A stretch of DNA of 61,359 bases, counting the filler, from Stramenopiles sp. TOSAG23-6 (Eukaryota): NCBI GenBank assembly GCA_900128565.1. It is 15 parts of 15 records of this genome, joined end to end, with 100 filler letters (N's around TTAATTAATTAA, not from the genome) between each part and the next. Parts side by side here need not be neighbours in the genome. Positions count along the whole stretch, not along the records: positions 1 to 4,020 come from LT637293.1; positions 4,121 to 8,140 come from LT637294.1; positions 8,241 to 12,256 come from LT637295.1; positions 12,357 to 16,371 come from LT637296.1; positions 16,472 to 20,485 come from LT637297.1; positions 20,586 to 24,597 come from LT637298.1; positions 24,698 to 28,690 come from LT637299.1; positions 28,791 to 32,782 come from LT637300.1; 7 more parts are not named here. One strand, given 5' to 3'. The notes under the pieces are model-generated. The model searched no databases. It saw only the letters and a program-made list of their open reading frames with translations, and was not told the origin of the DNA. A program made the position numbers and the translations under genes. Shown here in pieces: positions 1 to 61,359 of this stretch (position 1 is the stretch's first letter; every line of letters starts with the position of its first letter).

Positions 1-85
1 TTTGTTAGGTACAAAATTTCGTATGAAATTATTTTATAGAGGAGATGAATAAAAAATAAAAACAATTCAAGTGTAATTACATACA

Positions 86-323
86 TCACAAATGTTCTTT
101 GTAGCTGCGTCCATATTGTCAGTATTAGTAGTACAGACCTTGGGAAGTTGTTTATGATCATATTGTGTACACATTCTAAAAAAATATATATATTTTGTTA
201 GGTACGAAATTACGTACAAAAAAAAAAAAAAAAAAAAGTAAAAAAAAGTAAAAAAAGTATAATCATATTACTTTTTTTTTTATTGTAGAATAAAAATAAG
301 AAGAAACCTGAGATCACTACCAT
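86..323 (-). CDS. Possible 5' start of an intron-containing gene (MVVISD-DHKQLPKVC...), truncated by contig end; repeated at +4120
   Basis: ATG at 323, GT donor at 307, family intron with CCTAAC, short open exon, then another GTATGT donor. Confidence 0.35.
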
Positions 324-354
324 TTTTTTGTGTGATTTATGGTAATATCACATA

Positions 355-1545
355 TTATTTCTTTTTAGGTCTCCCTCTCTTTGTAGTCTTTTTAGGTCTT
401 CCCCTCTTTTTAGGTGTCGCTTTCTCAGCAGTTTTGTGTTTTTTTGAAGGGGTACTTTTCTGGGTACTACTCGCATCTGTCTTGCGTTTCTTTGAAGAGG
501 TACTTTTTCCAATCGAAAAAAATCCCTTAATAGTATCGATAAGTCCACCACCTGAATCTGTATTATCTTCGACATCGCCATTTTTCACCAGAAGTTTCCA
601 CTTGTCTTTTAGATCAACATTAGTTCTGTGAGCATGAAAATCATATTTGTCCAAAATGTCAGCCCACCATTTCCCGTGATTTTCCACTCCTTCCTTCAAA
701 TTTTCTATCTCTTCTTCAGTCCAAGGCACTCGATGTCGACGTTCTACCTTGTTTTTTGGCAATGAATTCTTGTTGTCATTTTTCTTAAGAACTTTCCACT
801 TATCTTTGAGATCAACAGGTTTTCTGTGATCAGCAAATTTTGTTCCTTTACCATAGATTTTTTTCCAGTTATACCCATGTTTTTTCACACCAGTCATTAG
901 GTATTTTGTTTCAGCAGCAGACCATGGTACACGGGGTCGTCGGTCGATCTGTATTGTCGATTCTTCGACTACTCCATTTCTCAACAGAACTCTCCATTTA
1001 TCTTTGAGGTCTACCGCCGTCCTGCAGGATTCAAAAGTATACTCGCTCAATATTTTTTTCCAATCAGGGCCTACTTCTCCGACAGCTTCCTTTAACTCTT
1101 CTACTTCATCTTCTCCCCATGGTACACGTTGTCGTCGTTGGAGATCGATTGAAGACTCTTCGACGTCTCCATTTCTCAAAAGAACTCTCCACTTATCTTT
1201 GAGGTCCATCGGTCTTCTGTGAGAAGCAAATTTTTTTCCTGTACCATAGATTAATTTCCAATCATACCCATGTTTTCCCACACCAACCAGTAGACTTTTC
1301 TTTTCAGCAGTAGACCATGGGACACGTGGACGGCCACTTTTGTTTCGGATCTCGTTGACAGCACCTAGTTTTAACATGACTCTCCACTTGTCTTTGAGAT
1401 CCACTGCAGTTCGAGAAGGTTCAAAAACATATTCACTTAAGATAATACTCCATTTATTTCCTTTTGATTCAACACCTGTCTTCAATTGTTTCACCTCATC
1501 AGTACTCCATGGAGTTCTTGGGCGTCGAGCTTTTCTGATTGGCAT
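355..1545 (-). CDS. Protein with five tandem telobox-type Myb/SANT domains and two C-terminal AT-hooks (TRF/TRFL-like DNA-binding protein)
   Basis: Five repeats of R.PW...E...L..GV...G..W..I...R..VDLKDKWR; C-terminal KRGRPKK twice; first ATG at 1545. Confidence 0.85.
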   Translation of the reverse strand: MPIRKARRPRTPWSTDEVKQLKTGVESKGNKWSIILSEYVFEPSRTAVDLKDKWRVMLKLGAVNEIRNKSGRPRVPWSTAEKKSLLVGVGKHGYDWKLIYGTGKKFASHRRPMDLKDKWRVLLRNGDVEESSIDLQRRQRVPWGEDEVEELKEAVGEVGPDWKKILSEYTFESCRTAVDLKDKWRVLLRNGVVEESTIQIDRRPRVPWSAAETKYLMTGVKKHGYNWKKIYGKGTKFADHRKPVDLKDKWKVLKKNDNKNSLPKNKVERRHRVPWTEEEIENLKEGVENHGKWWADILDKYDFHAHRTNVDLKDKWKLLVKNGDVEDNTDSGGGLIDTIKGFFSIGKSTSSKKRKTDASSTQKSTPSKKHKTAEKATPKKRGRPKKTTKRGRPKKK

Positions 1546-1965
1546 TTGCAAAGAAAATGTATATCTTTCTTAGAGAAACAGAGATAAGATACTACTAAAG
1601 ATACCGATAAAGATACCGATAGTATCTTTCGGGATTCTCGTCTTTCAACGGATCGACGAAATTTGGACTGACACGAAATTTGGAAAAAAAAAATGAAATT
1701 CGAAATTAAAATTGTTATTTTTTTTCAATTTAAATTTGAAACTTACCATGGTAAAAAAAATCATATATTATTTCATACGATATAGCTGCATACATTTAGA
1801 TAGATAGATACATACATACAAAAGTACCCTAACTTAATAAAAACAAAACAATTAAATTTCGTTTATAATGATTACTTTATAACGATATACAATATCATTA
1901 ATAAACGACATAAAGTAATATATTGTACATATATTATATATATATAGTCTGCGAACCTGTGGGAT

Positions 1966-3930
1966 CTATACATTTTGTTGTTGAAGTGCTTCTCTCTCTT
2001 CTCTCTCTCTTTTTAGTTTCGCGTCCTTTCTTACTATAGTTCTCCATTTATCTTTGAGATTAACGTTTGTTCTGTAGTCCGGGAAATCAAAGTCCTTCTT
2101 TATAGCAGCCCACCTACCAAAGCCATGTTTTGCGACACCATCTCTAAGCATATTTTCCTCGGCTTCTGTCCACTTGTTTCTTTGATATTTTGTTCTTTGT
2201 TTTTTCTTTGATGGAGAATCTTCGTCAGCACCATCAGCATCATCTTCACGACTGCGCTTTTGGTTGCCACTACTTGTAGCTCTCTCGTTTTCTTTGTCAT
2301 CAAACAGTCTAAGTGGTTTTATCGATGTTTTCATAGGTTGTAACCTTCTTCTTGTTGGCACAGCTTCATCCGACTCTGAATCTGTTTCAATTTCTTCAGC
2401 TGGAATGATTTTTTCAACTTCGTTTTCATTATGATTTTCATGTCCACTCGCATTTCGATGGCAATTAACATCATCATCAACAATTTCAACATCAACAATG
2501 TCCATATCAGGATCGTACTCATCATTTGTATCAGGAACGTAATTATCACCATCATTGTTATTTCTCGCTTGCAATTTTTTTAAGATTCCATTCGAGTCGG
2601 GAGAAAATTCATCTGAATCTGAGTCACTGTCATACCAAGACAAGGCTTTTGCAGAAGATTTCTTGTTGAGTAAACTTTCTTTTTTTTGTCCACGTCCACG
2701 GGTCGATTTTCCTTTTCCTTTACGATCCTTTGATAGATTTCTTGTATTTCTGTGAGTGGACATTCGAGAAGTAGATGTCTGCGAGACACTTACTGGTTCA
2801 AGAGGGCCTCTAGATTCACTTCTGGGATGACTCGGACGTGTAAGAGCAGCCTCACTTGAAACAACTGCAGCATTCAAAGGATCTTCACCACCAGACTTAT
2901 CTAGAGTCATTCTACTGTCTTTAACACCAGATATAACATCTTCAACCAATTGTGCAGATTCTTCAGAGTTATCACGACTATCATTTTCATCGTCTTCCTC
3001 GTCTTCAGTATCATCATCAACAAACGGATCTCCAATTTCTACGCTTTCTATTTTTTTTGGCTTTTCAGATTTTCGCTGTACATCTGTTTTCTTTGTATTT
3101 GTTTTAGACTTCTTTGCAACACTTCCGTGAGAAAACAAATTACTTAGCGCACTGAATTGGTTTGTAAATACTTCTGCTGCTTTTGCTGCAGAATTCAAGG
3201 CTTCTTTAAAAGGCGAATATTGAGAAACCTCATTTACAGGTGATTCAATTGAAGTCTCATTTACTGGTGATTCATTAGGCTTAGAGTTCTCATTTACTGG
3301 TGATTCGTGTGATTTTTCAGGCTCATCAAAAGGTGAGTCCTCTTGGACAATTGCATCAAGATTACTTTTACCACCAGCCAATTCACGAATTTGACTTAAA
3401 CTTAAATTCTGAGTGTCGTCGCCACGAGAAACACTCTTTACAGTACTCCTAGGTTGAGGAAAATTCGATTCGTTCGGACCTGAAGATGACGATAAAGTGT
3501 CCTCACCATGGTCCGAAATACGCTTCTTACTTAGCGGTGGAACTATCGTTTGATAAATACTTTTAATCCCATGATTCGTTTCACATGTCTTGGCAAGTCT
3601 TAGAAGAAAAGGTTTGCTAAAGACTGTAGACTCAACCAAGTCAATAGCGTTTTCGAAATCCTTTTTAAAGTCTTCAAAAGAACATGTATTTTGGAAAAAT
3701 ATTTGAAAAAAAAAAAAAAATTGTTAGGTACAAATTTTCGTACGAAAAAAAAAAATCCAATTTGAAAAAAAATAAAACATACATTGATCTAACAAATATT
3801 TTGCACGTTTTCGGATAGCTGACACAGATTGATCAGAGCTACTTGTAAAAATATCTGTTAATTGGTTTCGGTTGCTGTGATACATTTCGACGACTTGGTC
3901 ATACAAATTTTCTTCAAGATCTTTCGAAAT
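1966..3930 (-). CDS. TRF1/2/Taz1-like protein: long acidic disordered region plus a single C-terminal telobox Myb; 5' partial, intron 3684-3782
   Basis: KWTEAEENMLRDGVAKHGFGRWAAIK...RTNVNLKDKWR; removing the intron joins KYLLDQ-C-SFEDFKK in frame. Confidence 0.8.
3684..3782 (-). other. Family intron, GT-AT (99 nt)
   Basis: CAAT|GTATGT...TACCTAAC...AATACAT|GTTCT restores the frame. Confidence 0.8.
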
Positions 3931-4020
3931 ATGGATTATGAAAAAATATTTCAAAAAAAAATTTTAAAAAAATCGTTAGGTACGAAATTTCGTATGAAAA
4001 AAAAATTAAATTAGAAATTC

Positions 4021-4120: not shown

Positions 4121-4474
4121 TTTGTTAGGTACAAAATTTCGTATGAAATTATTTTATAGAGGAGATGAATAAAAAATAAAAACAATTCAAGTGTAATTAC
4201 ATACATCACAAATGTTCTTTGTAGCTGCGTCCATATTGTCAGTATTAGTAGTACAGACCTTGGGAAGTTGTTTATGATCATATTGTGTACACATTCTAAA
4301 AAAATATATATATTTTGTTAGGTACGAAATTACGTACAAAAAAAAAAAAAAAAAAAAGTAAAAAAAAGTAAAAAAAGTATAATCATATTACTTTTTTTTT
4401 TATTGTAGAATAAAAATAAGAAGAAACCTGAGATCACTACCATTTTTTTGTGTGATTTATGGTAATATCACATA

Positions 4475-5665
4475 TTATTTCTTTTTAGGTCTCCCTCTCT
4501 TTGTAGTCTTTTTAGGTCTTCCCCTCTTTTTAGGTGTCGCTTTCTCAGCAGTTTTGTGTTTTTTTGAAGGGGTACTTTTCTGGGTACTACTCGCATCTGT
4601 CTTGCGTTTCTTTGAAGAGGTACTTTTTCCAATCGAAAAAAATCCCTTAATAGTATCGATAAGTCCACCACCTGAATCTGTATTATCTTCGACATCGCCA
4701 TTTTTCACCAGAAGTTTCCACTTGTCTTTTAGATCAACATTAGTTCTGTGAGCATGAAAATCATATTTGTCCAAAATGTCAGCCCACCATTTCCCGTGAT
4801 TTTCCACTCCTTCCTTCAAATTTTCTATCTCTTCTTCAGTCCAAGGCACTCGATGTCGACGTTCTACCTTGTTTTTTGGCAATGAATTCTTGTTGTCATT
4901 TTTCTTAAGAACTTTCCACTTATCTTTGAGATCAACAGGTTTTCTGTGATCAGCAAATTTTGTTCCTTTACCATAGATTTTTTTCCAGTTATACCCATGT
5001 TTTTTCACACCAGTCATTAGGTATTTTGTTTCAGCAGCAGACCATGGTACACGGGGTCGTCGGTCGATCTGTATTGTCGATTCTTCGACTACTCCATTTC
5101 TCAACAGAACTCTCCATTTATCTTTGAGGTCTACCGCCGTCCTGCAGGATTCAAAAGTATACTCGCTCAATATTTTTTTCCAATCAGGGCCTACTTCTCC
5201 GACAGCTTCCTTTAACTCTTCTACTTCATCTTCTCCCCATGGTACACGTTGTCGTCGTTGGAGATCGATTGAAGACTCTTCGACGTCTCCATTTCTCAAA
5301 AGAACTCTCCACTTATCTTTGAGGTCCATCGGTCTTCTGTGAGAAGCAAATTTTTTTCCTGTACCATAGATTAATTTCCAATCATACCCATGTTTTCCCA
5401 CACCAACCAGTAGACTTTTCTTTTCAGCAGTAGACCATGGGACACGTGGACGGCCACTTTTGTTTCGGATCTCGTTGACAGCACCTAGTTTTAACATGAC
5501 TCTCCACTTGTCTTTGAGATCCACTGCAGTTCGAGAAGGTTCAAAAACATATTCACTTAAGATAATACTCCATTTATTTCCTTTTGATTCAACACCTGTC
5601 TTCAATTGTTTCACCTCATCAGTACTCCATGGAGTTCTTGGGCGTCGAGCTTTTCTGATTGGCAT
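4475..5665 (-). CDS. Five-telobox-Myb plus AT-hook protein (duplicate copy)
   Basis: Identical to 355-1545. Confidence 0.8.
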   Translation of the reverse strand: MPIRKARRPRTPWSTDEVKQLKTGVESKGNKWSIILSEYVFEPSRTAVDLKDKWRVMLKLGAVNEIRNKSGRPRVPWSTAEKKSLLVGVGKHGYDWKLIYGTGKKFASHRRPMDLKDKWRVLLRNGDVEESSIDLQRRQRVPWGEDEVEELKEAVGEVGPDWKKILSEYTFESCRTAVDLKDKWRVLLRNGVVEESTIQIDRRPRVPWSAAETKYLMTGVKKHGYNWKKIYGKGTKFADHRKPVDLKDKWKVLKKNDNKNSLPKNKVERRHRVPWTEEEIENLKEGVENHGKWWADILDKYDFHAHRTNVDLKDKWKLLVKNGDVEDNTDSGGGLIDTIKGFFSIGKSTSSKKRKTDASSTQKSTPSKKHKTAEKATPKKRGRPKKTTKRGRPKKK

Positions 5666-6085
5666 TTGCAAAGAAAATGTATATCTTTCTTAGAGAAACA
5701 GAGATAAGATACTACTAAAGATACCGATAAAGATACCGATAGTATCTTTCGGGATTCTCGTCTTTCAACGGATCGACGAAATTTGGACTGACACGAAATT
5801 TGGAAAAAAAAAATGAAATTCGAAATTAAAATTGTTATTTTTTTTCAATTTAAATTTGAAACTTACCATGGTAAAAAAAATCATATATTATTTCATACGA
5901 TATAGCTGCATACATTTAGATAGATAGATACATACATACAAAAGTACCCTAACTTAATAAAAACAAAACAATTAAATTTCGTTTATAATGATTACTTTAT
6001 AACGATATACAATATCATTAATAAACGACATAAAGTAATATATTGTACATATATTATATATATATAGTCTGCGAACCTGTGGGAT

Positions 6086-8050
6086 CTATACATTTTGTTG
6101 TTGAAGTGCTTCTCTCTCTTCTCTCTCTCTTTTTAGTTTCGCGTCCTTTCTTACTATAGTTCTCCATTTATCTTTGAGATTAACGTTTGTTCTGTAGTCC
6201 GGGAAATCAAAGTCCTTCTTTATAGCAGCCCACCTACCAAAGCCATGTTTTGCGACACCATCTCTAAGCATATTTTCCTCGGCTTCTGTCCACTTGTTTC
6301 TTTGATATTTTGTTCTTTGTTTTTTCTTTGATGGAGAATCTTCGTCAGCACCATCAGCATCATCTTCACGACTGCGCTTTTGGTTGCCACTACTTGTAGC
6401 TCTCTCGTTTTCTTTGTCATCAAACAGTCTAAGTGGTTTTATCGATGTTTTCATAGGTTGTAACCTTCTTCTTGTTGGCACAGCTTCATCCGACTCTGAA
6501 TCTGTTTCAATTTCTTCAGCTGGAATGATTTTTTCAACTTCGTTTTCATTATGATTTTCATGTCCACTCGCATTTCGATGGCAATTAACATCATCATCAA
6601 CAATTTCAACATCAACAATGTCCATATCAGGATCGTACTCATCATTTGTATCAGGAACGTAATTATCACCATCATTGTTATTTCTCGCTTGCAATTTTTT
6701 TAAGATTCCATTCGAGTCGGGAGAAAATTCATCTGAATCTGAGTCACTGTCATACCAAGACAAGGCTTTTGCAGAAGATTTCTTGTTGAGTAAACTTTCT
6801 TTTTTTTGTCCACGTCCACGGGTCGATTTTCCTTTTCCTTTACGATCCTTTGATAGATTTCTTGTATTTCTGTGAGTGGACATTCGAGAAGTAGATGTCT
6901 GCGAGACACTTACTGGTTCAAGAGGGCCTCTAGATTCACTTCTGGGATGACTCGGACGTGTAAGAGCAGCCTCACTTGAAACAACTGCAGCATTCAAAGG
7001 ATCTTCACCACCAGACTTATCTAGAGTCATTCTACTGTCTTTAACACCAGATATAACATCTTCAACCAATTGTGCAGATTCTTCAGAGTTATCACGACTA
7101 TCATTTTCATCGTCTTCCTCGTCTTCAGTATCATCATCAACAAACGGATCTCCAATTTCTACGCTTTCTATTTTTTTTGGCTTTTCAGATTTTCGCTGTA
7201 CATCTGTTTTCTTTGTATTTGTTTTAGACTTCTTTGCAACACTTCCGTGAGAAAACAAATTACTTAGCGCACTGAATTGGTTTGTAAATACTTCTGCTGC
7301 TTTTGCTGCAGAATTCAAGGCTTCTTTAAAAGGCGAATATTGAGAAACCTCATTTACAGGTGATTCAATTGAAGTCTCATTTACTGGTGATTCATTAGGC
7401 TTAGAGTTCTCATTTACTGGTGATTCGTGTGATTTTTCAGGCTCATCAAAAGGTGAGTCCTCTTGGACAATTGCATCAAGATTACTTTTACCACCAGCCA
7501 ATTCACGAATTTGACTTAAACTTAAATTCTGAGTGTCGTCGCCACGAGAAACACTCTTTACAGTACTCCTAGGTTGAGGAAAATTCGATTCGTTCGGACC
7601 TGAAGATGACGATAAAGTGTCCTCACCATGGTCCGAAATACGCTTCTTACTTAGCGGTGGAACTATCGTTTGATAAATACTTTTAATCCCATGATTCGTT
7701 TCACATGTCTTGGCAAGTCTTAGAAGAAAAGGTTTGCTAAAGACTGTAGACTCAACCAAGTCAATAGCGTTTTCGAAATCCTTTTTAAAGTCTTCAAAAG
7801 AACATGTATTTTGGAAAAATATTTGAAAAAAAAAAAAAAATTGTTAGGTACAAATTTTCGTACGAAAAAAAAAAATCCAATTTGAAAAAAAATAAAACAT
7901 ACATTGATCTAACAAATATTTTGCACGTTTTCGGATAGCTGACACAGATTGATCAGAGCTACTTGTAAAAATATCTGTTAATTGGTTTCGGTTGCTGTGA
8001 TACATTTCGACGACTTGGTCATACAAATTTTCTTCAAGATCTTTCGAAAT
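6086..8050 (-). CDS. TRF-like single telobox Myb protein (duplicate copy, 5' partial)
   Basis: Identical to 1966-3930. Confidence 0.75.
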
Positions 8051-8311
8051 ATGGATTATGAAAAAATATTTCAAAAAAAAATTTTAAAAAAATCGTTAGG
8101 TACGAAATTTCGTATGAAAAAAAAATTAAATTAGAAATTCNNNNNNNNNNNNNNNNNNNNNNNNNNNNNNNNNNNNNNNNNNNNTTAATTAATTAANNNN
8201 NNNNNNNNNNNNNNNNNNNNNNNNNNNNNNNNNNNNNNNNTTTTCATACGAAATTTTGTACCTAACAAATTTTTTTAGATTTTTTTTTTGAAATATTTTT
8301 CCAAAATACAT

Positions 8312-10329: not shown

Positions 10330-10398
10330 CAAACCCTAACCCTAAACAATTTCGATCAAACCCTAACCCTAAACAATTTCGATCAAACCCTAACCCTA
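10330..10398 (+). repeat. 2.5 copies of a 27-nt unit CAAACCCTAACCCTAAACAATTTCGAT containing (CCCTAA)2 telomere-like boxes
   Basis: Directly visible, about 120 nt upstream of ATG 10521. Confidence 0.85.
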
Positions 10399-12904: not shown

Positions 12905-14834
12905 ATGGATTCTATTAACGGTTGGTGGCCGGAGGATCTCCCATTTGATAAAGCTCCTATCATCAAGGTTGGAGGCACTGTAAGACTCACTAGAAGCGAC
13001 GTTTCAAGCACACCAGTTTTCGGTACCGTTCGCTATTTTGGTTACGTACATTACAGCAGTAATATTATGTTGGAATAGAATTAAATACAGAGCAGAAAAG
13101 TATAGCTACTCATGACGGTTGTGTTCGAGGCGTTAGGTATTTTCATTGTCCAAAAAATAGAGGCATCATGCGGAAATGGGGCAACGAAGTTCTTTGTGGA
13201 ATCAAGTGTGTCACGGATGATGAGTTACGCAAAGTAGAGGTAATAAATTCAGATATTTTGAGAAATCAAGTTGCATTGCACAAGAGTTTAGCTATTTCTA
13301 AATTGATAAAACGAAATATTTCTGCACTGCGTATAGAGACATTTTATCGAAGATATAAAGCTCGAAAAAAATTTCAAGATCTGAAATTAAAAAGAGATAA
13401 TGCGGCTGCAACAAAATTGCAGTTATGTTATTTGAAATTTAAAGCTTGCAAAATGTTGGATGCATTAAAAGCAAATCAAGTAAAGAATCTTGCTGCAATT
13501 AAAGTGCAATCTCTGCAACGTGGAAATATCTGCCGTTCGTTAGGAATCATTTCAACATTGAAAAACACTAACCCTACAGTTATCCCAGATGAAAAGACAA
13601 ATACAAAAGAATTTACTCAAGCCATCAAAGATACAAAACTTAAAATTTGTCCAGCGTTACTCCATAAAATACAAATCGATGAAGAAATTGATAAAATTAC
13701 TAAAAGAGCTACAACTAAAAAACCTATAAACGCTGTAAAACAGGAAAATATATATTCAATTGAGCACTCACAGTTAATTGACATTCTTCAAAAGGTTTCT
13801 TTAGGTCTCAAAATGCATTCCGATGGTGATACGAAATCCCCATATTTCAAAAAAATTAAAAATATGATAAAAAGTCAAAATTTACAGCAGGGGTAGCATG
13901 TGCCAAAAGACGACGTTTAGAATATTTAAAGACAAAATTCAAGCGTGAGAAGTTAAAAAAAAGAAAAGCGTTAGGTACAAAATTTGGTACACAAAAAAAA
14001 ATGAATGAAATACCAGAAAAACATGTTGTTGGATTCAAAGCATACCAGGCTGCTTCGATGAGACGCTTACTAATGGCACAAACAGAAAATATACGTCGCA
14101 ATAATGCAAGAAAAATAAAAGAAATGAAAATGAGAGAAGCATCTAGGCGACGGAGAGATGTACGACTTGAACGACATAATATTAGATCTCGAGTTGTTCA
14201 ACTGAAAAAACTATCCAAGTCAATGCGCGCAAAGAAAAATAATGAAAATAATGGATCATCTCTAGATTCTAAAGAATCTGAACCAACTCATAATGAAAAT
14301 AATGGATCATCTCTTGAATCTAAAAAAGTTGAACCAACTCATGCATTGAAACGTGCGAATCTTAGGCGAGAACAAAAATTAAAAAGTCCAATAAAACTTT
14401 TTTCTCAAGCTTTACTAAGTGAAAATTCTGCACCACCAAGTCATAAATATTCACATATGAAAAAATTATACGTCAAACCACCTAAAAAGAAATGGTCACC
14501 GAGTGCGGCATGGGGAGCAAATCCAAAAAAAAAGAAAATATTAAGAAAAAAAACACGAGATTCTAGCACTTTTTCACCACGAGGTTCTACTAAGAATTTC
14601 CATAATAGTAGTAACAGTATCTTATACAAAACGTACAAGTCAAAGATTCCTACAAAAACGAAAGGAGTAAATAATAAAACATCAAAGATACAAAACTCAA
14701 AGATACAAAAATCAAAGAAATTGGAAAATTATCTTCAAATGAAACCAGAAGATCTGTTTCTTGAAGACTTATCTGTTTTGGTATCCAATCAATTATTAAT
14801 GAGCAAGTTTATACAAGATACAAAATCAAAATAA
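12905..14834 (+). CDS. CAP-Gly domain plus IQ-like, basic coiled-coil protein, with two apparent frameshifts (~13063, ~13855)
   Basis: GTVRYFGYVHY / YVGIEL...HDGCVRGVRYFHCPKNRG is a CAP-Gly signature split over two frames; VQSLQRGNICR IQ motif. Confidence 0.7.
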
Positions 14835-16471: not shown

Positions 16472-16506
<35 letters not shown>

Positions 16507-16552
16507 ATGAAAATTTGTACCTAACAGAAAAAAAAAATTTGAAAAAAAAAAT

Positions 16553-17099: not shown

Positions 17100-17110
17100 T
17101 ACGTTATACA

Positions 17111-45237: not shown

Positions 45238-46046
45238 GCTAAGTGGATAGAAGAGAAAGGTGGCTTAGATTATTTAGTTGCAGAATCGAAAGATGTAATG
45301 CGTAGGTTTTCAAACCCTAACCCTAATTTCATTTTCGATTTTTTTTTCCATACAAAATTTTTGTGCCTAACAAAAAGCAATTGAAAAAATATTTTTTCAC
45401 TATATAGTTGATCCTGTCAAACGCCAAGAATTTTTGAATAGAGTTAAAGATACTGCGCTTAACTTTTTGTTATCCTATCTTCCTGCAGTAGAAGTTCCGC
45501 GAGTGGAAGGGGTGAGTAATGGAGTTGAATATGTACGTCTAAAAATTGAATATTTTTTATTATGAAAATTTTGTTTCGAATTTTGTACGTAACAATTTTT
45601 TTTTACTAAAAAAAAAAAAAAGGATATTTTTCACAATATAGTAGAAAGTACCTGCTGATAGTGTCGATTTAGTTATTGTAGATGGATGTGAACTTCACCT
45701 ACAGGCAGATGATATAAGTTTTATTATTTTCAATTTCAAAGTTTTTTTTCGTACGAAATATTGTGCCTAACAAAAATATTGAATGAAAAATATTTTTCAA
45801 AATACATATAAGTTTCGAAATGCATGACTTGCAATGGACGTACAGACAACCAACTTTTCCATATTTATCGGGTCAAGGCACGATCGATTGTTTGAGTGAG
45901 AGGACACAGTTTAAAGTAGTTTTAAGTTTAGATATTTTGGAAGATTTTAACAAAAAACAGGAAGAATTGGATGAACAATGGTATGAAGCACTCGCAGAAC
46001 GTTCGAAACTTGAAAAACAACGAGTAGAAAAATGTATAGCAAAGGG
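45238..46046 (+). CDS. Internal exons of an unknown gene (introns 45302-45407 GT-AG, from 45533, 45714-45807 AT-AT)
   Basis: Open exons between family introns; LQWTYRQPTFPYLSGQG. Confidence 0.55.
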
Positions 46047-46148
46047 GTACGTTTTTTTTTTTTTTTTTTTTGAATTTATTTTTTTTTACATACCTAAATG
46101 TATACCTAACAAAAAAAAATTATTAAAAAAATATTTTTTACCATACAT

Positions 46149-46536
46149 TGGCTCATCGAATTCCAGCTTTTGAAGAGTCGAAAGTCGTGAGTTCTTGGGC
46201 AGGTTCGTATGAGTATAATACATTTGATCAGAACGCAATTATGTGCGTTTTCAATCATTGATTTTTACCTATATTTTTTCATAGTAAATTTTGTACCTAA
46301 CGATTTTTTAACGAAAAAAAAAATATGTTTCACAATACATTGGTAAACATCCTAAGATATTGAATTTTTATATGATGAATGGATTTAGTGGTCATGGAAT
46401 TCAGCAAGCACCTGCTGCAGGATTAGCCATAGCAGAGCAAATTGTTTATGGAAAATATAAAAATATAGATCTCACACCTTTTGGCTATGAGCGATATCTT
46501 CAAGGCTTACCTTTGAAAGAAAAGAATGTTGTATGA
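46149..46536 (+). CDS. FOXRED1: FOXRED1-like FAD-dependent oxidoreductase, C-terminal two exons; GT-AT intron 46243-46340
   Basis: [35 protein letters not shown]...[14 protein letters not shown]...EKNVV*; absent from the ORF track. Confidence 0.85.
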
Positions 46537-46581
46537 TAATTTTATAGTAAATTTCTTTGTTAAAAAAATATATTGTATGTA

Positions 46582-49124
46582 TTATTTTTGAACTCTTTTT
46601 AGGGTAACTTCTCTCATTAGCTCTTTAATACTTTGATGTGTTTTTGCTTTCTTTGATAACTTCTTTGCAATTCGAACTCCAAGAGCAACTTTACGAGGAC
46701 TCATAGACCTCTTTTTCGCATATTCTGCAAATTTCTTTTTCGCCGTAACTTCTTGGCGTGCTTTTAATTCATCTAGGAGTATCAACCACGGAGCTCGTTC
46801 AAAGCCACATAGGCATGCAAGAACTCCACCTTTCGAGTAAACATTCCGACCCATAATACTATCTCTTGCGTGACCATGCCTGTGTGTCTTTTTGTCAGAA
46901 ATACCATTATTCGTTTTTTTTGCTCTACGATGGCACATTCCATATAATAACTTTTTTAGCATATCTTCATACATATTTTTCTTTTTATAACCACCAGTCC
47001 AGAAAGTGTTCATTACCAAAGCAACTGATATGCGAATAATCATCATCTTCACAATGATCCAATATAATAGAAAAAATGTATAAGAAACTAAATCAGACGA
47101 GACTTTGGAGTATGCATCAGCAAAGAGAAATGTCTTTGTCATCGCAACAAACATTGTGATATAGCTATTATAAAAGTCATTAAAATTATAAACTAATCGA
47201 TTCTTTCTCCCCATTTCTACGCAAGCCGCAGCTGTACACCAAACATTTGTTTCACTACCATCAATGGTAAGATAAGCAAATCCACCAAATAAGCGCATAC
47301 CTACAGTCGAAAATAAATGAATAGTAGGAAACGCAATACCAACCATAAGTATTATATGTGTTTCCATATTCGCAAGGATGCTTAGCATTACGTAAAATGG
47401 TTTCCATGAAGATAATATTCGGAGACATCGCATACCTCGGCACAATGCTAATGTAATCATAATGATGCTTGTAATTTCTTTAGCTCTTGAATCATTATAT
47501 AACGAAAAAAACAAAAGGCTACCCATTTCGCCAGTAAAACAGGAAAAATTAAGTATCAACTCATATTGATGTCGTCTAGTACTTAAGTATGCATTCCAAC
47601 CAAACACAAATATTTTCATTAAAGAATCGATCATAAAAAATGTTGAGAAAGGCGTATATATATTGTGTAAAATATTTTAAATTCGAAATTTTGTTAAGTA
47701 CAAAATTTTGCATGACAAATAAATAAATTTAAAATTCATGATGAAAACGTATCATATCGAAGAGTATCCATAGCATTAGCAGTGTTTGATCTTGGTATCA
47801 TCATGTGATCATTATTTGAATTTTCTGCATGTTTGGCATCCTTATTTGAATAATGCGTCATTATTTCAACAAAATTAAATAATACTAATAAAGTAATGAA
47901 AATCTCGTAAAAAAAATGAGCGACATGAGGTTCTCTTCTCATCGCAGAAATTTCTTTAGGTCCGAAAAACATCTTTTCAAGAAACATAAACCACCTTTTA
48001 CTTCTACAACGTCGTCTACAACTTGATAGTGAACAGTAGTACTTAACCACAGACCACCAATTATATATATTACACCTATTTTCAGGCAAAGGTGGAGAAA
48101 TCCAACGAGACATTAAATAATTTCGCATTTCGTGTTTTTTTAAATCACTGGATGAATCCTCCATCATTCCAAATAGTTCACAAAAGCCTAAAAATTCTGA
48201 TGGATTAACTACAGAATCTCTATCTAGATCTAATCTTTGAAGAAAATTTTTTGCAATTTCATGAAGTTTTACTTCAACACGAAATTTTGAAAATAATTCT
48301 TCCTCATATTCATCAAATTGGGCATCAATTGTACGGAATCCTTTTGTATGCTTTTTATTATCATCAGTGTTAGGTTTATCATCAGTGTTTATTGAATGAG
48401 GCAGCTCTGGAAATGCTGTTATATTTTCATCTTTCTTGTTATCAATATTGCTTGTGAAAATACTGCTACTTTCCGTTTCATTACTGGAAATTCCTAATTC
48501 AATACCTACAGCACTATCTACATTTACTTTTGTTTCACCACTGGAAGTTCCTAATTCAATACCTACAGCACTATCTACATTTACTTTTGCTTCATTTATT
48601 TTTGTTTCATTTATTTTTTTCACAGATTTTTGATATTTTTTATACTTTTTTATTATGCGTTTCCCTTTTTCTTCATTTTTTGACAATTTTAAACCATAAT
48701 TAGATATTGATAACACCTCATGCACAAGGTCACGAACAACAATAAATGAAAGCTCTCCTGTGTTATTTACGTCAAGCATCTTGAAGACAGTCAATAAAGC
48801 ATGCATTGCGAAAATATATTTTTTTTAGCAAAAAAAATTGTTAGGCACGAAATTTTCATAGTAAAAAAAAATCGAAATTCATGATGAAAACGTACATGAT
48901 GTTTCATCTGTTCTCCATTAGACATAATACAATTTCGATAATCCTCAACAAAAGACTTTACAGTAATTGCCAGTAGCATTGGCACTAAGTAAAAGCATGT
49001 TAAACACATAAACACAATCCAAAGCAAATATTGTGATAAAATATTTAAAAACAAAGTTGTTAGGTACAAAATTTCGTACAAAAAAAAAAAACAGTCAAAA
49101 TTCGATTTTGAAAACGTACAAAGG
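46582..49124 (-). CDS. Two-pore/voltage-gated-like cation channel with EF-hands, 3' part; introns 47658-47752, 48801-48895, 49026-49119
   Basis: FKMLDVNNTGEL EF-hand, S4-like RGMRCLRIL, GMRLFGG, YNFNDFYNSYITMF pore region. Confidence 0.65.
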
Positions 49125-53153: not shown

Positions 53154-53303
53154 GTATGTTTTTTTTTTTTCAAATTCGAAGTTTTTTTTCGTACGAAATT
53201 TTGNNNNNNNNNNNNNNNNNNNNNNNNNNNNNNNNNNNNNNNNNNNNTTAATTAATTAANNNNNNNNNNNNNNNNNNNNNNNNNNNNNNNNNNNNNNNNN
53301 NNN

Positions 53304-55268: not shown

Positions 55269-57281
55269 ATGGTTAATAGTTCAAACACTTGCATTTACTC
55301 ACACGATGAGTGCCTTCTGCATAACATTAAAGATCACGTTGAACAACCCGCGCGAGTTCGAGAAATTATGTTGGCTTTAAGGAGTTTTTATCCGAAAATT
55401 CCTGTTGTTGAAGCTCCATTAGCAACAGAAACACAGTTGTTGCGGTTTCATTCCGAACGGCATTTGTATCGTTTGTCTTGCGCGCATGAGCGACTGAGAG
55501 ACTTTCCTGAATTCTATAATCAAGATACTCATGTAATAAATAGTAGGAAGTCATCTGGTTCTTCTAATAAAAGAAACGGTAAAAAACTTTCAAAGAGAGA
55601 AAGAAAAGTGGAAGCTCGACAACGCCGACGGAATGAAGCGAATAAAAAACGTCACCGACCAGCCATAGCGAAGGGACAGCGAGTAGAAAAAATCGATACT
55701 GACACGTTCTTGACGCGATATACACAAAATGCATTTCTTCGAGCATCCGGTGCTTCCGTCGCTGCTGTTGATGCTGTATTATCTAGTACATATAAAAGAG
55801 CTTTCTGCGTAGTTAGACCTCCTGGGCATCATTCTGGTCCTTCAACCGCTGCTGGTTTCTGTTTCGTAAATAATATTGGAGTTGGTGTACGACATGCCCA
55901 AGAAGTGTATGGCTTGACACGTGTTGCTGTGGTTGACTTTGATGTTCATCATGGAAATGGAACACAAAAAGGTTTTGAATTAGATCCAAATGTCTTTTAC
56001 GCCTCCACGCATCAAATGCCTTTATGTATGTAGTATTTAATTTTTTTTTGGTTTTTCATAGTAAATTTTGTACCTAACATTTTTTTTATTACAAACAAAA
56101 CTAAAAAAACTACATTTTTTTAATCGTACTAAAATAAAAAAATTGTTGTTATATTGTACATATTGAATATCCAAACACTGGTAAAGCGACTGAAACAGGA
56201 TGCTGTCGGAATGTTACGAATGTACGTTTAATTTATTAATTTATTTTTCTATGATAATTTCGTACCTACAAAAAAACATTTTTTTTCATTATTCAATATT
56301 GAATTTGACATATTTTTTCACAAAACATGTACCGATGAAAAAATCCACAACTTCAGAACAATTTCAAGTCGCTTATTCTACACAAATTCTTCCAGCGTTA
56401 CACAAATTTTCACCTGAGCTTATAATGTAAGTTTCAAAATTGAATTTCAATTCTTTTTTCATAGTAAATTCCGTACCTAACGATTATTTTTACTAAACAA
56501 TATTTCTTCGCCACCCATGATTTCTGCTGGATTTGACGCACACAAAGATGATCCACTTGGGGGGATGTTACTCGTTAAAGAAGATTTTTTATGGGTTACC
56601 CTTCAACTTGTGGCTGCGGCAGAAACAATAGTTCGTTTTCATCATTTCAATTTCATTTTTTTTAATAGAAAATTTTGTACAAAAACATATTTTATCATCA
56701 TTTCAATTTCAAAATTCAGTACCTGACGAATTTCGAATTTGACATATTTTTACTAGCACGTGACTCTTGTAAAGGTCGTGTAGTATCGTGCTTGGAAGGA
56801 GGCTGTAGGTTTTGTTTGTTTCAATTTTATGTGACGAAGTATCCTATTTTTTTATTTTTAGTATGAAATTTTGTACCTTACACTCGAATTTGTTTTAAAC
56901 AAAATATCACTTTTATTAATTTTGTTGCATCGTTGACAAATTTCACACATTATATACAATGTTGAAGCCATCAAGGAATGTTCAATTGCTCATCTAAGAG
57001 CTCTTCAGAGCCCTGATGCTTTACCTGGAACTGAAGATTCGAAATTATTTATTAATGCAGTTGAATTGTATTTAAGTACAATTTCTGTAGATGAAAAGAT
57101 CGATTCTCCAGAGGGCGATAGTAGCGATATTGCAACGGTTATCAGTGTTGCCTCTGGTATTGGGAATTTTTGGTGCAAAGAGATAGAAAAAGAAAATCCA
57201 AAAATTATAAATAAATCTCAAAAAGAGATAGAAAAAGAAAATCCAAAAATTATAAATACATCTAAAAAAGAGATAGAAAAA
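55269..57281 (+). CDS. Histone deacetylase-family (class II-like) protein with five family introns, 3' truncated
   Basis: HVEQPAR, RPPGHH, GFCFVNN, DFDVHHGNGT, PL-YPNTG, N-VPM, ELIM-ISAGFDAH, LEGG-YN. Confidence 0.9.
56026..56168 (+). other. Family intron, GT-AT (143 nt)
   Basis: TTAT|GTATGT...TTGAAT|ATCCA restores PLYPNTG. Confidence 0.8.
56222..56328 (+). other. Family intron, GT-AT (107 nt)
   Basis: AAT|GTACGT...AAACAT|GTA restores NVP. Confidence 0.8.
56427..56518 (+). other. Family intron, GT-AT (92 nt) with textbook GTAAGT donor
   Basis: ATAAT|GTAAGT...CCCAT|GATT restores ELIMISAGFDAH; no AG between branch point and motif. Confidence 0.88.
56631..56761 (+). other. Family intron, probably GT-GT
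   Basis: The nearby TAG is out of frame; ATA|GTTCGT...CACGT|GAC is in frame. Confidence 0.5.
56805..56955 (+). other. Family intron, GT-AT (151 nt)
   Basis: GGCT|GTAGGT...TATAT|ACAAT restores the catalytic LEGGY. Confidence 0.82.
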
Positions 57282-57381: not shown

Positions 57382-60216
57382 TGCTATTACCATAATACTG
57401 TCACAGAAGAATCCTCTTGGGAGTGGCCAGAAGGAGTAGAAGAAAATATGATGGCAGAGGAGGGTAAGGTCGATGTTTTACAACGGCAACATAAATTAGA
57501 GGCATTATTTCGATCTTATGATAAAGATAGTAGTGGCACGATATCAACAGAGGAATATAAACAAGTTTTGACTGATATGCATAAAAATACTAGTATAGTA
57601 AAAGCTCTATCAAACAAACAAATTGACAAACTATTGAAATCAGCTGATAAAAATAACGATGGAAAAGTAGATATCTCAGAAGCTACTATACTTACACACA
57701 CGGCCATTGAAGAATGGATGAAAAATAATGTTGGTGCGACTGCTAATACGAAACGTATGCGAAGGGCTATGCTAAAGCTACAGTTTGCAAAGACAAGAAA
57801 ATCAGCCAAGGCAGAGAAGCCACTAGAAGTACCAGTGATTGTGTGGGAGACGTGCTACACGAAAGATGGCTACTGCTATTACCATAATACTGTCACAGAA
57901 GAATCCTCTTGGGATTGGCCAGAAGGAGTAGAAGAAAATATGATTGCAGAGGAGGGTAAGGTCGATGTTTTACAACGGCAACATAAATTAGAGGCATTAT
58001 TTCGATCTTATGATAAAGATAGTAGTGGCACGATATCAACAGAGGAATATAAACAAGTTTTGACTGATATGCATAAAAATACTAGTATAGTAAAAGCTCT
58101 ATCAAACAAACAAATTGACAAACTATTGAAATCAGCTGATAAAAATAACGATGGAAAAGTAGATATCTCAGAAGCTACTATACTTACACACACGGCCATT
58201 GAAGAATGGATGAAAAATAATGTTGATATTGATCTAGAAGAAGAATCTCCTATGAAGAAAATGAATAGGGCGATGTTAAAACTACGATTTGCAAGAACAA
58301 GAAAAACAGTGAAGCCACTAGAAGTACCAGTGGTTGTGTGGGAGACGTGCTACACGGAAGATGGCTACTGCTATTACCATAATACTGTCACAGAAGAATC
58401 CTCTTGGGAGTGGCCAGAAGGAGTAGAAGAAAATATGATGGCAGAGGAGGGTAAGGTCGATGTTTTACAACGGCAACATAAATTAGAGGCATTATTTCGA
58501 TCTTATGATAAAGATAGTAGTGGCACGATATCAACAGAGGAATATAAACAAGTTTTGACTGATATGCATAAAAATACTAGTATAGTAAAAGCTCTATCAA
58601 ACAAACAAATTGACAAACTATTGAAATCAGCTGATAAAAATAACGATGGAAAAGTAGATATCTCAGAAGCTACTATACTTACACACACAGCCATTGAAGA
58701 ATGGATGAAAAATAATCTTGATATTGGTAAAGAAAAAGAATCTTCCAAGAAACGTGTGCGTAGGGCGATGTTAAAACTAAAATTTGTACAGGCAAGAGAG
58801 AATGCTTTAAAAAAAGAGATATCGGAATTGGGAGATACCTTGTCTTCCATTAAAGTGAAAATTAAAAACACCGACACCGAAAAGCAAGGTTTAGAGTCTC
58901 ATTTAAAAGAAATCAGAGTAAAAAAGGAGATGAGAAAAAAACTTGCCGTGGAAGGTAAAAGTGAATTTGATGTTTTTTTAGAAGTGGCAAAGGATAGATT
59001 AGAGAGAGTATTTCAAGAACAAAACAGTGCAATAGAGCGTGATGCGAAACTATTATTTCATTTGGCAGAGAAGCAGTACAAATATTTTATTGATGAAAAG
59101 GTTTCTGTTGATAAAGCATTTTGTATAACTACCGATTTTGATGAACTTCGAGAATCAATGTTAGACTTAATCGTTCCACAAGTATCTGATAATAATACAG
59201 AAAAGAGTAAGGAAGGACACAACAAAAAAACTACAAAAGACAAATATTCTAATGTGACTCTTACACAACTTTTACACTTACTTTCTTCTTCGATATTAAA
59301 AGGTGACAAAACAAGTAAAACCAATCAAAGTCATATGATACAAAAACCCTCGAAAGATAATTCCCATAGTACCAAAGCAACATTAGAATTAGAGAATGAG
59401 TGTACAAAGCTTAAGAAATCGAATAATTATTTTAAAGCGCGACTAGAGGAATTAGAATTTGAGTATTCCAAAAATGTTTCATTGAAAGATCGTATATGTA
59501 TTTATGAAAAGTCGAATCGAGAATTTAGTGGAAAAATCAAGAACTTTATAGATCTCCGTGCATCAGCTGAAAACCAAATTGCTATAGCTAATGAAAAGGT
59601 TGTTCGCTTAGCTGAACACATTGAAAAACTAATGTTGCATGTCAAACACGAGTCGACTAGCAAGATGAGGGCACGAAATGAAAAGAAACGCATGGAGAAT
59701 GAGGTGAAAAAACTTCGTATGAGATTGACTGGATTAGCGTCTAAAAATAAATCTAGAGATAAAGTTATTTTAGAATTAAGGGAAGGAGCAAATATTCTCC
59801 AACAGCAACTTGCATTAATGGATGAGCATTATATTGGATTGCGGGGAAAATTAGACTTTACAAGAAAACAAGCGAGGAGACATATTTTAAAAATTCAAGT
59901 GGAAGCAAATTCTTTAAGAGAGCGGTGGATAAATGCGGGTGGCTTTAACATCGAACTACTTGCACACACTGCAAAAGTTGCCAAGCCAAAAAAAGGCGGA
60001 GCTGCGTTATTTGATCTCTTGAAAAGTCCACCTTCGATGAAGACAAAAAAGGAAAAAAAACAAACCCCTTTACTTCAGAATATAGACAAGGTCAGCAATC
60101 AAACCGACATTATAGTATTACCAGCCATTCAGAACATTGTGAACGAAGAAAGAAATAGTGTAGATTTACTAAATGAATCAATGCCTTGGGGCACCAAAGC
60201 GCACGAATTATACTAA
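57382..60216 (+). CDS. Protein with three near-identical WW plus EF-hand-pair modules and a C-terminal coiled coil; 5' partial
   Basis: WETCYT.DGYCYYHNTVTEESSW.WP; DKDSSGTISTEE; DKNNDGKVDISE; units about 492-495 nt. Confidence 0.85.
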   Translation, partial: CYYHNTVTEESSWEWPEGVEENMMAEEGKVDVLQRQHKLEALFRSYDKDSSGTISTEEYKQVLTDMHKNTSIVKALSNKQIDKLLKSADKNNDGKVDISEATILTHTAIEEWMKNNVGATANTKRMRRAMLKLQFAKTRKSAKAEKPLEVPVIVWETCYTKDGYCYYHNTVTEESSWDWPEGVEENMIAEEGKVDVLQRQHKLEALFRSYDKDSSGTISTEEYKQVLTDMHKNTSIVKALSNKQIDKLLKSADKNNDGKVDISEATILTHTAIEEWMKNNVDIDLEEESPMKKMNRAMLKLRFARTRKTVKPLEVPVVVWETCYTEDGYCYYHNTVTEESSWEWPEGVEENMMAEEGKVDVLQRQHKLEALFRSYDKDSSGTISTEEYKQVLTDMHKNTSIVKALSNKQIDKLLKSADKNNDGKVDISEATILTHTAIEEWMKNNLDIGKEKESSKKRVRRAMLKLKFVQARENALKKEISELGDTLSSIKVKIKNTDTEKQGLESHLKEIRVKKEMRKKLAVEGKSEFDVFLEVAKDRLERVFQEQNSAIERDAKLLFHLAEKQYKYFIDEKVSVDKAFCITTDFDELRESMLDLIVPQVSDNNTEKSKEGHNKKTTKDKYSNVTLTQLLHLLSSSILKGDKTSKTNQSHMIQKPSKDNSHSTKATLELENECTKLKKSNNYFKARLEELEFEYSKNVSLKDRICIYEKSNREFSGKIKNFIDLRASAENQIAIANEKVVRLAEHIEKLMLHVKHESTSKMRARNEKKRMENEVKKLRMRLTGLASKNKSRDKVILELREGANILQQQLALMDEHYIGLRGKLDFTRKQARRHILKIQVEANSLRERWINAGGFNIELLAHTAKVAKPKKGGAALFDLLKSPPSMKTKKEKKQTPLLQNIDKVSNQTDIIVLPAIQNIVNEERNSVDLLNESMPWGTKAHELY

Positions 60217-60309
60217 ATAAAAATAACTATAAAATAAACTATAAAATACCAAAGCACACGAATTATACTAAACATAAAAATAACTATAAAATACTATATT
60301 TTCACTACA

Positions 60310-61294
60310 TTATTTTTTTTCACTTTGAACCGACCATTTACATTGGTTATAATCTACATTATATACAAAACTTCGATAATTATTAATTTCACCAATTCCT
60401 TCATCTTGTCGGTCTTTGCCGACTTTAATATAGATCTCTTCATTACATTGTATATATTGTAAAAAATTGGCTAGTTGAACATGATCTCCTGATAAAGCAT
60501 CGGTTAGTAACTCTCGCAGATACGACCACTGTGAATATTTCATCCTATGTATTATGAAAAAATATTACAATATGTTTGTTATTAGGTACAAAATTTCGTA
60601 CGAAAAAAAAACAGACAAAAAAAATGAAAACGTACATGAACATGTCGAGGCCAAACACCATCTATTTTTTTCATTTCTATTTCATTCTGATCAGATATGG
60701 ATATTCGTATTCTTTCATCAGGAATTTCTAATTTACCAGAGAAAACTTTACTGAGCCACAAACATTGAATATCAAACAATTGAAATGGTAAAATTCCATA
60801 TGGCAAACCAATCAAGGCAAGTGTTGGATATTTCGCATGAAGTATCCCTTTATAGAGTGGTGATGCAAATCGCATCGTTTTATCAAATACAGGAATATCT
60901 AAAAAGCTAGACACGGAATACGATGCATTGTGAAAAGATATTTTTAAAAGTTTGAAAGGTGATGAAATCAAAGATAAAATGATATTTGTAGATTAGAGTC
61001 AAAAAGTCGAAAAACGTCGAAAAACGTGTTTTTGTGAAATCACTCTATTGTAGTCGCTCAAATTGGAGTTCTGTGATTGAATTAGAAGGATGATGTAATA
61101 CAAAATAAATGTACAACTGCTGCTGTAGCACGAAAAAAACAAAAATGAAATTCATGATGAAAGCGTACAATATCCAGTAGCTAATATAACTTCATCAATA
61201 TTTGATAAAATTTCGCCATTTTCTAAAATGACGTTATGACCATCAAAACTTTGAATATTTGGCATAACCCGAAAATCATTTTCGGATGATTTAC
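60310..61294 (-). CDS. Flavin-containing monooxygenase-like, 3' part; GT-AT introns 60547-60635 and 60923-61168
   Basis: IDEVILATGY-SYS, PLYKGI, PTLALIGLP..ILPFQLFDIQ, RHVH-RMKYSQWSY. Confidence 0.8.
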
Positions 61295-61359
61295 ATGTAT
61301 TGTTAAAAAAATTAAATTCGAAATTTGTTAGGTACAAAATTTCGTACGAAAAAAAAAAT

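Follow-up and report, generated by a model that had tools for sequence, protein, structure and literature searches.

What are the many short, mutually similar introns in the genes of Stramenopiles sp. TOSAG23-6, and by which bases are they bounded? The question is raised by a stretch of 61,359 nucleotides from assembly GCA_900128565.1 (the whole of it is called the window below), for which a preliminary description had proposed that introns in unrelated genes belong to one introner-like repeat family. The window is made of 15 pieces, whose lengths fall steadily from 4,020 to 3,978 bases, joined by linkers of the form N44-TTAATTAATTAA-N44. Pieces 1 (1-4020) and 2 (4121-8140) are identical in sequence, so that features there count double unless one is removed; the exact duplicate at 4121-8140 (unstranded) was excluded from the copy counts, copies within it being left uncounted, and the unique bases amount to 55,939. 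We regard it as probable, and well short of certain, that these introns are an introner-like, lineage-specific family of spliceosomal (U2-type) introns of about 100 nt, with a non-canonical 3' end, making up essentially all introns here.

A profile built from 7 copies was run with nhmmer and gave 65 matches, 51 of them at E<=0.01, which collapse, with the duplicate contig left out, into 45 unique loci, or about 45 loci in some 56 kb. All of the 28 complete or nearly complete introns, including five more diverged ones in a gene for a class II histone deacetylase (HDAC), fit one ordered plan in a MAFFT alignment. From 5' to 3' it runs GTAYGTTTT, an A/T block with AATTTCGAAT, a T-run, CRTASKAAA with TTTTGTACCTAAC immediately adjoining it, a run of T or of A, GAAATAT and TTTTTYCAMAATAYAT. 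The 3' portion comprises a spacer and then a pyrimidine tract with CAMAATAY. The order of the blocks is the one given in the preliminary description, whose claim of a single layout in introns of about 90-150 nt from unrelated genes is borne out by the alignment, by the number of loci and by motif counts far above chance. The latter were compared against shuffles, allowing at most one mismatch: the palindrome TTTCGTACGAAA has 27 matches versus 0.39 expected, and CAAATTCGAATT, with 10 versus 1.82, is for that reason the weakest block.

The in-frame introns described below are 83-151 nt long (median 101.5). An extended branch region of 25 nt, TTTCRTASKAAA-TTTTGTACCTAAC, is kept even in diverged introns, and the distance from the branch A to the 3' end is 34-44 nt in 20 of 23 introns. 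In a core class about 65 of some 95 nt are conserved. The 28 delineated introns are all sense to the host gene; the preliminary description had stated this of almost all. The further claim, that the family accounts for nearly all introns, holds for the window, where no intron lacking the plan was seen and complete gene models were not built, and reaches no wider than that. Rfam gave no match at gathering scores over the whole window; folding of 8 copies, compared with shuffles, gave no structure signal (z from -1.9 to +1.3); and the 25-base core had 0 matches in a metagenome contig collection and 0 in a viral contig collection.

Intron boundaries were evaluated through the reading frames. Donors were set at the consensus position and 3' ends at the consensus-aligned last base, and the longest upstream open frame was compared with the longest downstream one. 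By this test 26 of 28 introns join their flanking frames, the chance for each being 1 in 3 (binomial tail 7e-11); the 3' ends of 45533-45644, 56026-56168 and 56805-56955 were picked with the aid of frame or homology, and when these are left out 23 of 25 are in frame. Automatic junction calling by longest open frames was replaced by the consensus-placed ends: since the tails of the introns read through in frame, it had selected false AT sites lying too early.

Core-type introns, complete, in frame and of the form AT|GT..AT (the bar marking the exon end), lie at 3684-3782 (minus strand, 60 + 571 open codons, confirmed in the alignment), 31228-31327 (minus, 484 + 119 codons) and 38196-38292 (plus, 408 + 82 codons). 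The last interrupts a beta-adaptin gene, and there the alignment with the homologue picks up again past the intron, the gap size being right within 2 residues. Another core-type intron, at 42123-42214 (minus, 476 + 258 codons), reads AT|GC..AT. The AT|GT..AT form is also found complete and in frame at 16730-16837 and 46243-46340 on the plus strand, and at 48801-48895 (76 + 354 codons) and 60547-60635 (119 + 78 codons) on the minus strand. Other first bases occur in the complete, in-frame introns 26329-26430 (minus, AT|GA..AT, 258 + 71 codons, in a heme-oxygenase-like gene), 29271-29382 and 45714-45807 (both plus, AT|AT..AT) and 47658-47752 (minus, TG|AT..AT, 357 + 357 codons). The exon ends in bases other than AT at 15127-15224 and 17358-17475, complete and in frame (both minus, TT|GT..AT), and at the short in-frame intron 17952-18034 (minus, TG|GT..AT), whose upstream frame is weakly defined (34 codons versus 24 and 17). 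AG-ended members, complete and in frame, are 28906-29011 (plus, AT|GT..AG), 29468-29568 (plus, CC|GA..AG, 52 + 198 codons) and 15387-15493 (minus, AG|GT..AG, 162 + 71 codons), the last with the very ends that had been reported for it. In the diverged intron 45533-45644 (plus, AT|GT..AG) the in-frame end is the second AG, the first one leaving a stop codon. The intron at 25828-25955 (minus, AC|GT..TT) carries two branch blocks, and its consensus-aligned end is in frame (54 + 108 codons).

Protein homology fixes some junctions. In the HDAC gene, on the plus strand, four are exact: HQMPL-Y-PNTG at intron 1 (56026-56168, with a longer 3' part), NVTN-VPM at intron 2 (56222-56328), PELIM-ISAGFDAH at intron 3 (56427-56518) and LEGG-Y-N at intron 5 (56805-56955), where the Y codon is split T|AC. 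All four introns are GT..AT; the exon ends in AT at the first three and in CT at the fifth. Intron 4 (56631-56761) would read TA|GT..GT if consensus-aligned; it is in frame at 56761, and other in-frame ends exist. This intron resembles two tandem partial members, the first part ending ...AAAACAT after 58 nt; the 5' block TTTCATCATTTCAATTTCA is present twice, and GT is the consensus-aligned end if the whole is spliced as one unit.

At 45302-45407 (plus, GC|GT..AG), a diverged member of the family, splicing is seen in RNA: a polyA RNA contig (X6 record 28) runs from 45236-45301 into 45408-45532, and thus removes exactly the intron. Depth was obtained from reads on a single contig (45145-49124), most of the listed joints being repeat artefacts and the uncovered parts giving no evidence. 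Intron and exon depths there are 616.8 and about 2 in the polyA run X6, as compared with 73,785 and about 7.6 in the DNA run X2; the ratio is about 30 times lower in X6, a weak hint of splicing.

Position counts show that conservation ends at both junctions, except for exon positions -2 and -1 and exon position +1. The former are AT in 18 of 26 cases (69%), versus a 9.7% share of AT among dinucleotides of nearby exon sequence, and the latter is a purine in 28 of 32. Among the 26 in-frame introns the first two bases are GT in 20, AT in 3, GA in 2 and GC in 1, and the last two are AT in 19, AG in 5, TT in 1 (25828-25955) and GT in 1 (56631-56761). The last base is therefore T in 21 and G in 5; where the first base is A, in three introns, the last is always T. 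An AT 3' end is found in frame without AT before the donor in five introns, those ending at 15224, 17475, 18034 and 47752 and the one starting at 56805, which is fixed by homology.

The frames (26/28) and the HDAC homology thus show that AT truly serves as the 3' end, as had been suggested, also where the exon does not end in AT; the observation is stronger than originally stated, because the non-AG ends are backed by both frames and homology. Attributes of U2-type introns are a GT-like donor, the TACCTAAC branch, a pyrimidine tract, the RNA-spliced case and the 26 of 28 frames; an AG end is found in only 5 of 26. The simplest reading is that the AT-ended introns are U2-type, with a 3' cut that would be set largely by position, usually after AU.

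That the family is dispersed and of high copy number is seen in contig breaks, in metagenome depth and in the near-identical copies that separate contigs carry. Repeats interrupt assemblies made from short reads, and contig ends pile up at the copies: 11 of 28 unique contig ends lie within, or at most 8 nt from, a family match, versus about 7% expected (p = 1.7e-6), and two further ends were placed in copies by eye. Core-type copies cut by a contig start are seen at 8241-8311, 28791-28844 and 45145-45237, all on the plus strand, the last having the top metagenome depth, and core-type copies cut by a contig end at 40907-40959 and 53154-53203 (plus) and 44993-45044 (minus). Other copies are cut by a contig start at 36972-37029 (plus), by a contig end at 3931-4020 (minus, 3' part kept), by the start of both window and contig at 1-28 (minus, matching 2-28) and by the end of the window at 61295-61359 (minus). 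The copy at 16472-16554 (plus), cut by a contig start and kept from the T-run onward, was recognized by eye. A complete core-type copy lies 4 nt from a contig start at 24702-24795 (plus). On the minus strand at 49026-49119, the ends TT|GT..TT claimed in the preliminary description agree with the consensus alignment; the frame is unreadable there, the contig ending 5 nt upstream of the donor.

Word depth in the DNA run X2 is 73,785, 20,104 and 7,905 in bins with consensus-like introns, about 7.6 in exons, and about 4 to 105 in bins with the diverged introns 45533-45644 and 45302-45407; in metagenomes consensus-like introns exceed exons in depth 1,000- to 10,000-fold, these figures pooling all contigs at least 90% alike, those of other organisms included, and being no copy number. 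The consensus form of the intron is vastly commoner than single-copy sequence in the X2 sample. Core copies on different contigs have whole-length identities of 0.83-0.89, while composition-matched shuffles reach 0.72 at most, and for 27 of 29 introns the nearest neighbour is on another contig. Local spread or gene conversion was considered and rejected: pairs on the same contig are no more alike than others (0.650 versus 0.659; 3,381 of 5,000 label permutations reach the observed mean), and local duplication or conversion is therefore not the cause of the similarity.

Two introns on the plus strand, 29271-29382 and 30177-30294, carry the identical rare branch variant, with three changes, as well as a variant 5' block, and are 0.84 identical to each other; N bases close to the second one make its frame unreadable. 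Variants held in common in this way are hard to explain except by copying. Moreover, the frame is kept also by diverged members from which several blocks are missing, and one of them is RNA-spliced, so that the near-identity of the core goes beyond functional need.

Several results weigh against the family reading. Two of the 28 introns miss the frame, each by 1-2 nt: at 46047-46148 (plus, GG|GT) the frame needs an end at 46146 (AC) or 46149 (TT), or a donor 1 nt upstream, and at 17663-17828 (minus) the consensus-placed 3' end is 1 nt out of frame. Possible causes are an error in the sequence, the use of an alternative site and a wrongly chosen donor. The only junction seen directly in RNA is of the GT..AG type, and the AT ends are supported by frames and protein homology. 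The best-matching pair in the window is only 0.89 alike, no two copies being identical, and the median pairwise identity is 0.66, with 0.60 in the shuffled control. Differences fall mostly in the runs between conserved blocks, as selection on signals would also give. Linkage between variants at the 5' and 3' ends did not reach significance in a crude two-class, post hoc test (p = 0.12); dividing the copies more sharply gave a better-looking outcome, which was equally post hoc and was not relied on. To these are to be added the pooling in the depth figures, the near absence of copies outside introns and the behaviour of the flanking dinucleotides, the last two being treated below. Nor was an empty site, an insertion polymorphism or an autonomous element seen, no search of a whole genome having been made.

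If the family reading is right, the copies would have expanded through the copying of an intron-generating, introner-like element, and a young, homogeneous core, about one quarter of the copies, would stand beside older copies that keep mainly the parts required for splicing. Each copy carries a yeast-like donor, (AT)|GTAYGTTTT, and its 3' cut falls at a fixed place, 34-44 nt past the branch A; the host spliceosome would accept, or would have moved over to, 3' ends that are determined by position and have U at -1. Spread as DNA, in the manner of a miniature inverted-repeat transposable element (MITE) inserting at AT, and reverse splicing of the excised intron fit this scheme equally well. We hold only tentatively, and doubt more than we believe, a more far-reaching version: in this uncultured marine protist a major spliceosome independent of AG, with a cut fixed by the plan and a preference for U as the last base (AU, UU and GU being tolerated, and G or A in first position), would have arisen together with an invasion by a single ~100-nt introner, which, inserting after AT, produced most of the genome's tens of thousands of introns.

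The alternative that survives best, which we nevertheless consider unlikely, involves no mobility at all: the introns would be ordinary ones, inherited vertically, with unusually long and strict splicing signals under selection, an extreme of what is found in small-genome eukaryotes. It fits the conserved blocks parted by variable low-complexity runs, the retention, even in the most diverged introns, of the 25-nt branch region and of a fixed spacing to the 3' end (34-44 nt in 20 of 23), the 83-89% identity of core copies, and the failure to see either a flanking duplication or a structure signal. Against it, we know of no signal set as extensive as the ~65 conserved nucleotides out of ~95 of the core class. 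The introns are dense, about 45 in 56 kb, rather than sparse; the full plan is not needed, as block-poor members are in frame and one is RNA-spliced; rare variants and spacer variants held in common point to copying; and the repeat breaks the assembly. Selected signals, raised as an alternative from the start, nonetheless probably explain part of the likeness, because of the variable runs, the identity close to that of shuffles and the branch region kept in old-looking introns; this part would reside mainly in the 25-nt branch region.

Irimia and Roy (2008) reportedly described strict splice signals in small-genome eukaryotes such as Ostreococcus. The introns of the window are like these in that similarity comes through a strong donor and branch consensus and a fixed distance from branch to 3' end; they differ in that signals of the Ostreococcus type are short and GT-AG, while here the greater part of the intron is taken up by the plan, the assembly breaks at copies, and AT ends predominate. 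A placement among intron-poor genomes with strict signals was accordingly rejected, the ordered blocks covering most of the intron and the loci numbering about 45 in 55,939 bases.

Ranking next, and in our judgement improbable, is a MITE-like, non-autonomous DNA transposon with GTAT..ATAC termini, inserting at AT and duplicating it, such that splicing removes the element together with one AT. An AT exon end precedes 16 of the 26 in-frame introns, well above the 9.7% background, and AT stands before every core-type copy with a readable 5' flank; once GT..AT has been excised, precisely one AT is left; there is a partial copy outside introns, and HDAC intron 4 is tandem-like. The 2-bp target-site-like duplication that had been proposed was, in contrast, not sustained by the counts. 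Exon-end and intron-end dinucleotides are equal in 15 of 26 introns, versus 12.0 expected if they are independent, which is no significant excess; among the 10 introns with a non-AT exon end there is one match only, AG|GT..AG. A weak association is seen between AT exon ends and AT intron ends (14/16 versus 5/10, Fisher p = 0.069). As AT is its own reverse complement, the AT..AT flanks fit equally a 6-nt inverted repeat (ATGTAT/ATACAT), a duplication, or a GT..AT element inserting after AT. The strong preference for AT at exon ends is real; it could reflect the choice of target or a 5' signal that extends into the exon. As for the inverted repeats described at the intron ends, GTAT and ATAC are indeed present; the repeat is of 4 nt, or 6 with the AT flanks, and shows neither co-variation with GTAC donors in the alignment nor a folding signal. 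Finally, a transposon of this kind fits poorly with copies that are nearly all sense and intronic.

Outside introns, or antisense, only two copies were found, both partial. One is a 65-nt fragment at 30803-30867 (plus), holding the middle blocks only and located between convergent genes; on either side of it, at about 30760-30802 and 30868-30911, stands one of a pair of direct repeats of 43 nt (2 mismatches). The second of these repeats overlaps the stop-codon end of the minus-strand gene, and the stretch 30760-30911 can alternatively be read as AT|GTAC..AT. The other is a family-like stretch of 38 nt at 13968-14005 (minus, profile E 2.9e-05), corresponding to the branch region and lying antisense in an open plus-strand frame, where it would be translated ...KALGTKFGTQKK...

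Third in order, and doubtful in our view, is spread through RNA, in which an excised intron would reverse-splice at AT|R-like sites and then return to the genome by reverse transcription and recombination. Copies nearly all sense and intronic, a likeness that ends exactly at the intron ends, the same AT|R exon context for all copies and the lack of inverted-repeat structure are what this route would leave. No direct evidence of it was found, and the intergenic copy and the antisense fragment fit it badly, although both are partial. To our knowledge, spread of introns by reverse splicing on a genomic scale has been shown in no organism.

A shift of the boundaries by 2 nt, giving AT-AC introns (|ATGTATGT..ATAC|) removed by the U12-type machinery or by a U2-type AT-AC route, is disfavoured and very improbable. 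For the 14 AT|GT..AT introns the reading |ATGT..AC|AT yields the same mRNA, and an intron with A at +1 is known to be compatible with C at -1. It fails for the five in-frame introns without exon AT listed above, among them 56805-56955 (CT|GT..AT), whose junction is fixed by homology. U12-type introns have the donor RTATCCTT and a branch 10-26 nt from the 3' end; the donor GTAYGTTTT does not match this consensus, and 34-44 nt from branch to 3' end is too long. Least probable of all is removal from DNA instead of RNA, on the model of the sequences eliminated by ciliates, which the introns resemble in their short inverted termini and in the dinucleotide repeated at their flanks: donor and branch are of the spliceosomal kind, the copies sense-only, an RNA contig has a member spliced out while DNA contigs retain introns, and long frames are open under the standard genetic code.

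Among known introners, those of Micromonas, Aureococcus and Pelagomonas likewise consist of many similar short introns with a length peak, mostly sense, in unrelated genes of a marine picoeukaryote. Fungal introner-like elements are near-identical introns that multiply and decay to ordinary-looking ones, and they reportedly fold more stably than ordinary introns; the likeness here is in near-identical introns multiplying within a genome, the difference in the fold z values given above. In Pelagomonas, introner elements are of about 210 nt, with conserved terminal inverted repeats, GT or GC donors and always AG acceptors (10.1101/2021.10.25.465678), whereas copies in the window are of about 100 nt, with a 4-6 nt inverted repeat lacking a structure signal and a 3' end that is mostly AT. 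In Amoebophrya over 60% of introns are described as non-canonical; repeated introns apparently propagate in the manner of mobile elements, no end dinucleotides dominate, inverted repeats 8-20 nt long form hairpins, and the boundaries are spanned by direct repeats of 3-5 nt (PMC7789003). Compared with what is described there, the window has in common a marine protist, repeated introns and a non-canonical majority; it differs in showing one dominant pattern (GT in 20/26, AT in 19/26), a classic donor and branch, and no hairpin. The tunicate Fritillaria borealis is described as having 95% non-GT/AG introns, diverse (AG/AC 18%, AG/AT 16%) and removed by the major spliceosome, the authors tying the altered introns to changes in U2AF and small nuclear RNAs (10.1101/2025.08.15.670264). 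There too most introns are not GT/AG and AT 3' ends occur; by that account they mostly start with AG, whereas in the window GTAYGT is retained at the donor and the departure is confined to the acceptor side. A single uniform family whose members have the classic GTAYGT donor and branch and yet mostly end in AT is thus described in none of Amoebophrya, Pelagomonas and Fritillaria.

A literature search on introners, GT-AT introns, stramenopiles and single-cell genomes found no description of such introns, and none joining introners with MAST-4 was found. In a word search of genome papers on uncultured marine stramenopiles (PMC5269757, PMC5778133, PMC8163842, 10.1101/2020.10.15.341214, 10.64898/2026.04.17.719054), introns appear only in methods or summary statistics; the supplements of these papers might bear on the matter. 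A free-living eukaryote in which most introns are GT-AT would, if this is true, amount to a natural experiment in 3' splice site recognition, pointing to the U2AF small subunit, Prp8, Slu7/Prp18 and U2/U6 as candidates, in an abundant lineage of ocean grazers. It would also offer a compact and uniform system for intron birth, because nearly all introns would be copies of one element, differing in age. Annotation software built on GT-AG will mis-model most genes of the organism, and the gene counts, protein sets and intron statistics that have been published for such genomes may therefore be distorted.

As regards the source organism, the window has a GC content of about 33%; the standard genetic code keeps long frames open, and the products are ordinary eukaryotic proteins, among them the HDAC, beta-adaptin, Myb-repeat proteins and a RAD51-like protein (assigned by sequence motifs). 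The closest database proteins are 36-55% identical and come from assorted protists, including an oomycete and MMETSP transcripts; in searches restricted to the longer proteins, the best full-length identity was 41% for HDAC and the best for beta-adaptin 55%, with nothing closer. The contig 45145-49124 occurs in a single small DNA run as well as in metagenomes and metatranscriptomes from seawater, and because of this seawater occurrence the source is taken to be a marine planktonic protist. When HDAC exon 1 was searched against metagenome contigs, 80 loci were kept, none having a family match and none being a close relative; the lone low-GC, full-length HDAC locus among them (L073) is intronless and may be bacterial, hence uninformative on intron positions.

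Profile matches with approximate limits were also found on the minus strand at 174-231 (E 4.6e-06), 17186-17275 (no open frame downstream), 18152-18191, 18513-18580 (donor GTAGGT, only the 3' limit being approximate) and 19148-19222. Microsatellites adjoin or sit within family introns in the most AT-rich contig (26% GC): ATTAATTATG x4.2 at 17110-17151, ATTTAGTT x11.6 at 18193-18285 and AATG x19.5 at 19224-19301.

Neighbouring long same-strand frames overlap, with no intron-like sequence between them, at 13860-13896, 21924-22099, 41345-41460 and 43487-43644, probably through frameshifts due to assembly errors (one falls in a T-run), the genes being otherwise real pseudogenes; the last three were tried as introns and rejected, as they look like frameshifts. 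A single, intron-free open frame of about 1,330 residues, with Gly/Ser/Thr-rich repeats, fills one contig (32883-36871); its GC content, 0.40-0.44, is above that of the remainder of the window, and it contains several single N bases. A long coding frame contains, at 57382-58786, 2.8 tandem copies (92% matches) of a unit of 495 nt, each coding for a WW-like and an EF-hand-like stretch. Just upstream of a gene starting near 10413, 2.6 perfect copies of a 27-nt unit are found at 10330-10398, with CCCTAA twice per unit, as in telomere-like repeats; its string CAAACCCTAACCCTAA recurs at 45311-45327, inside the intron 45302-45407.

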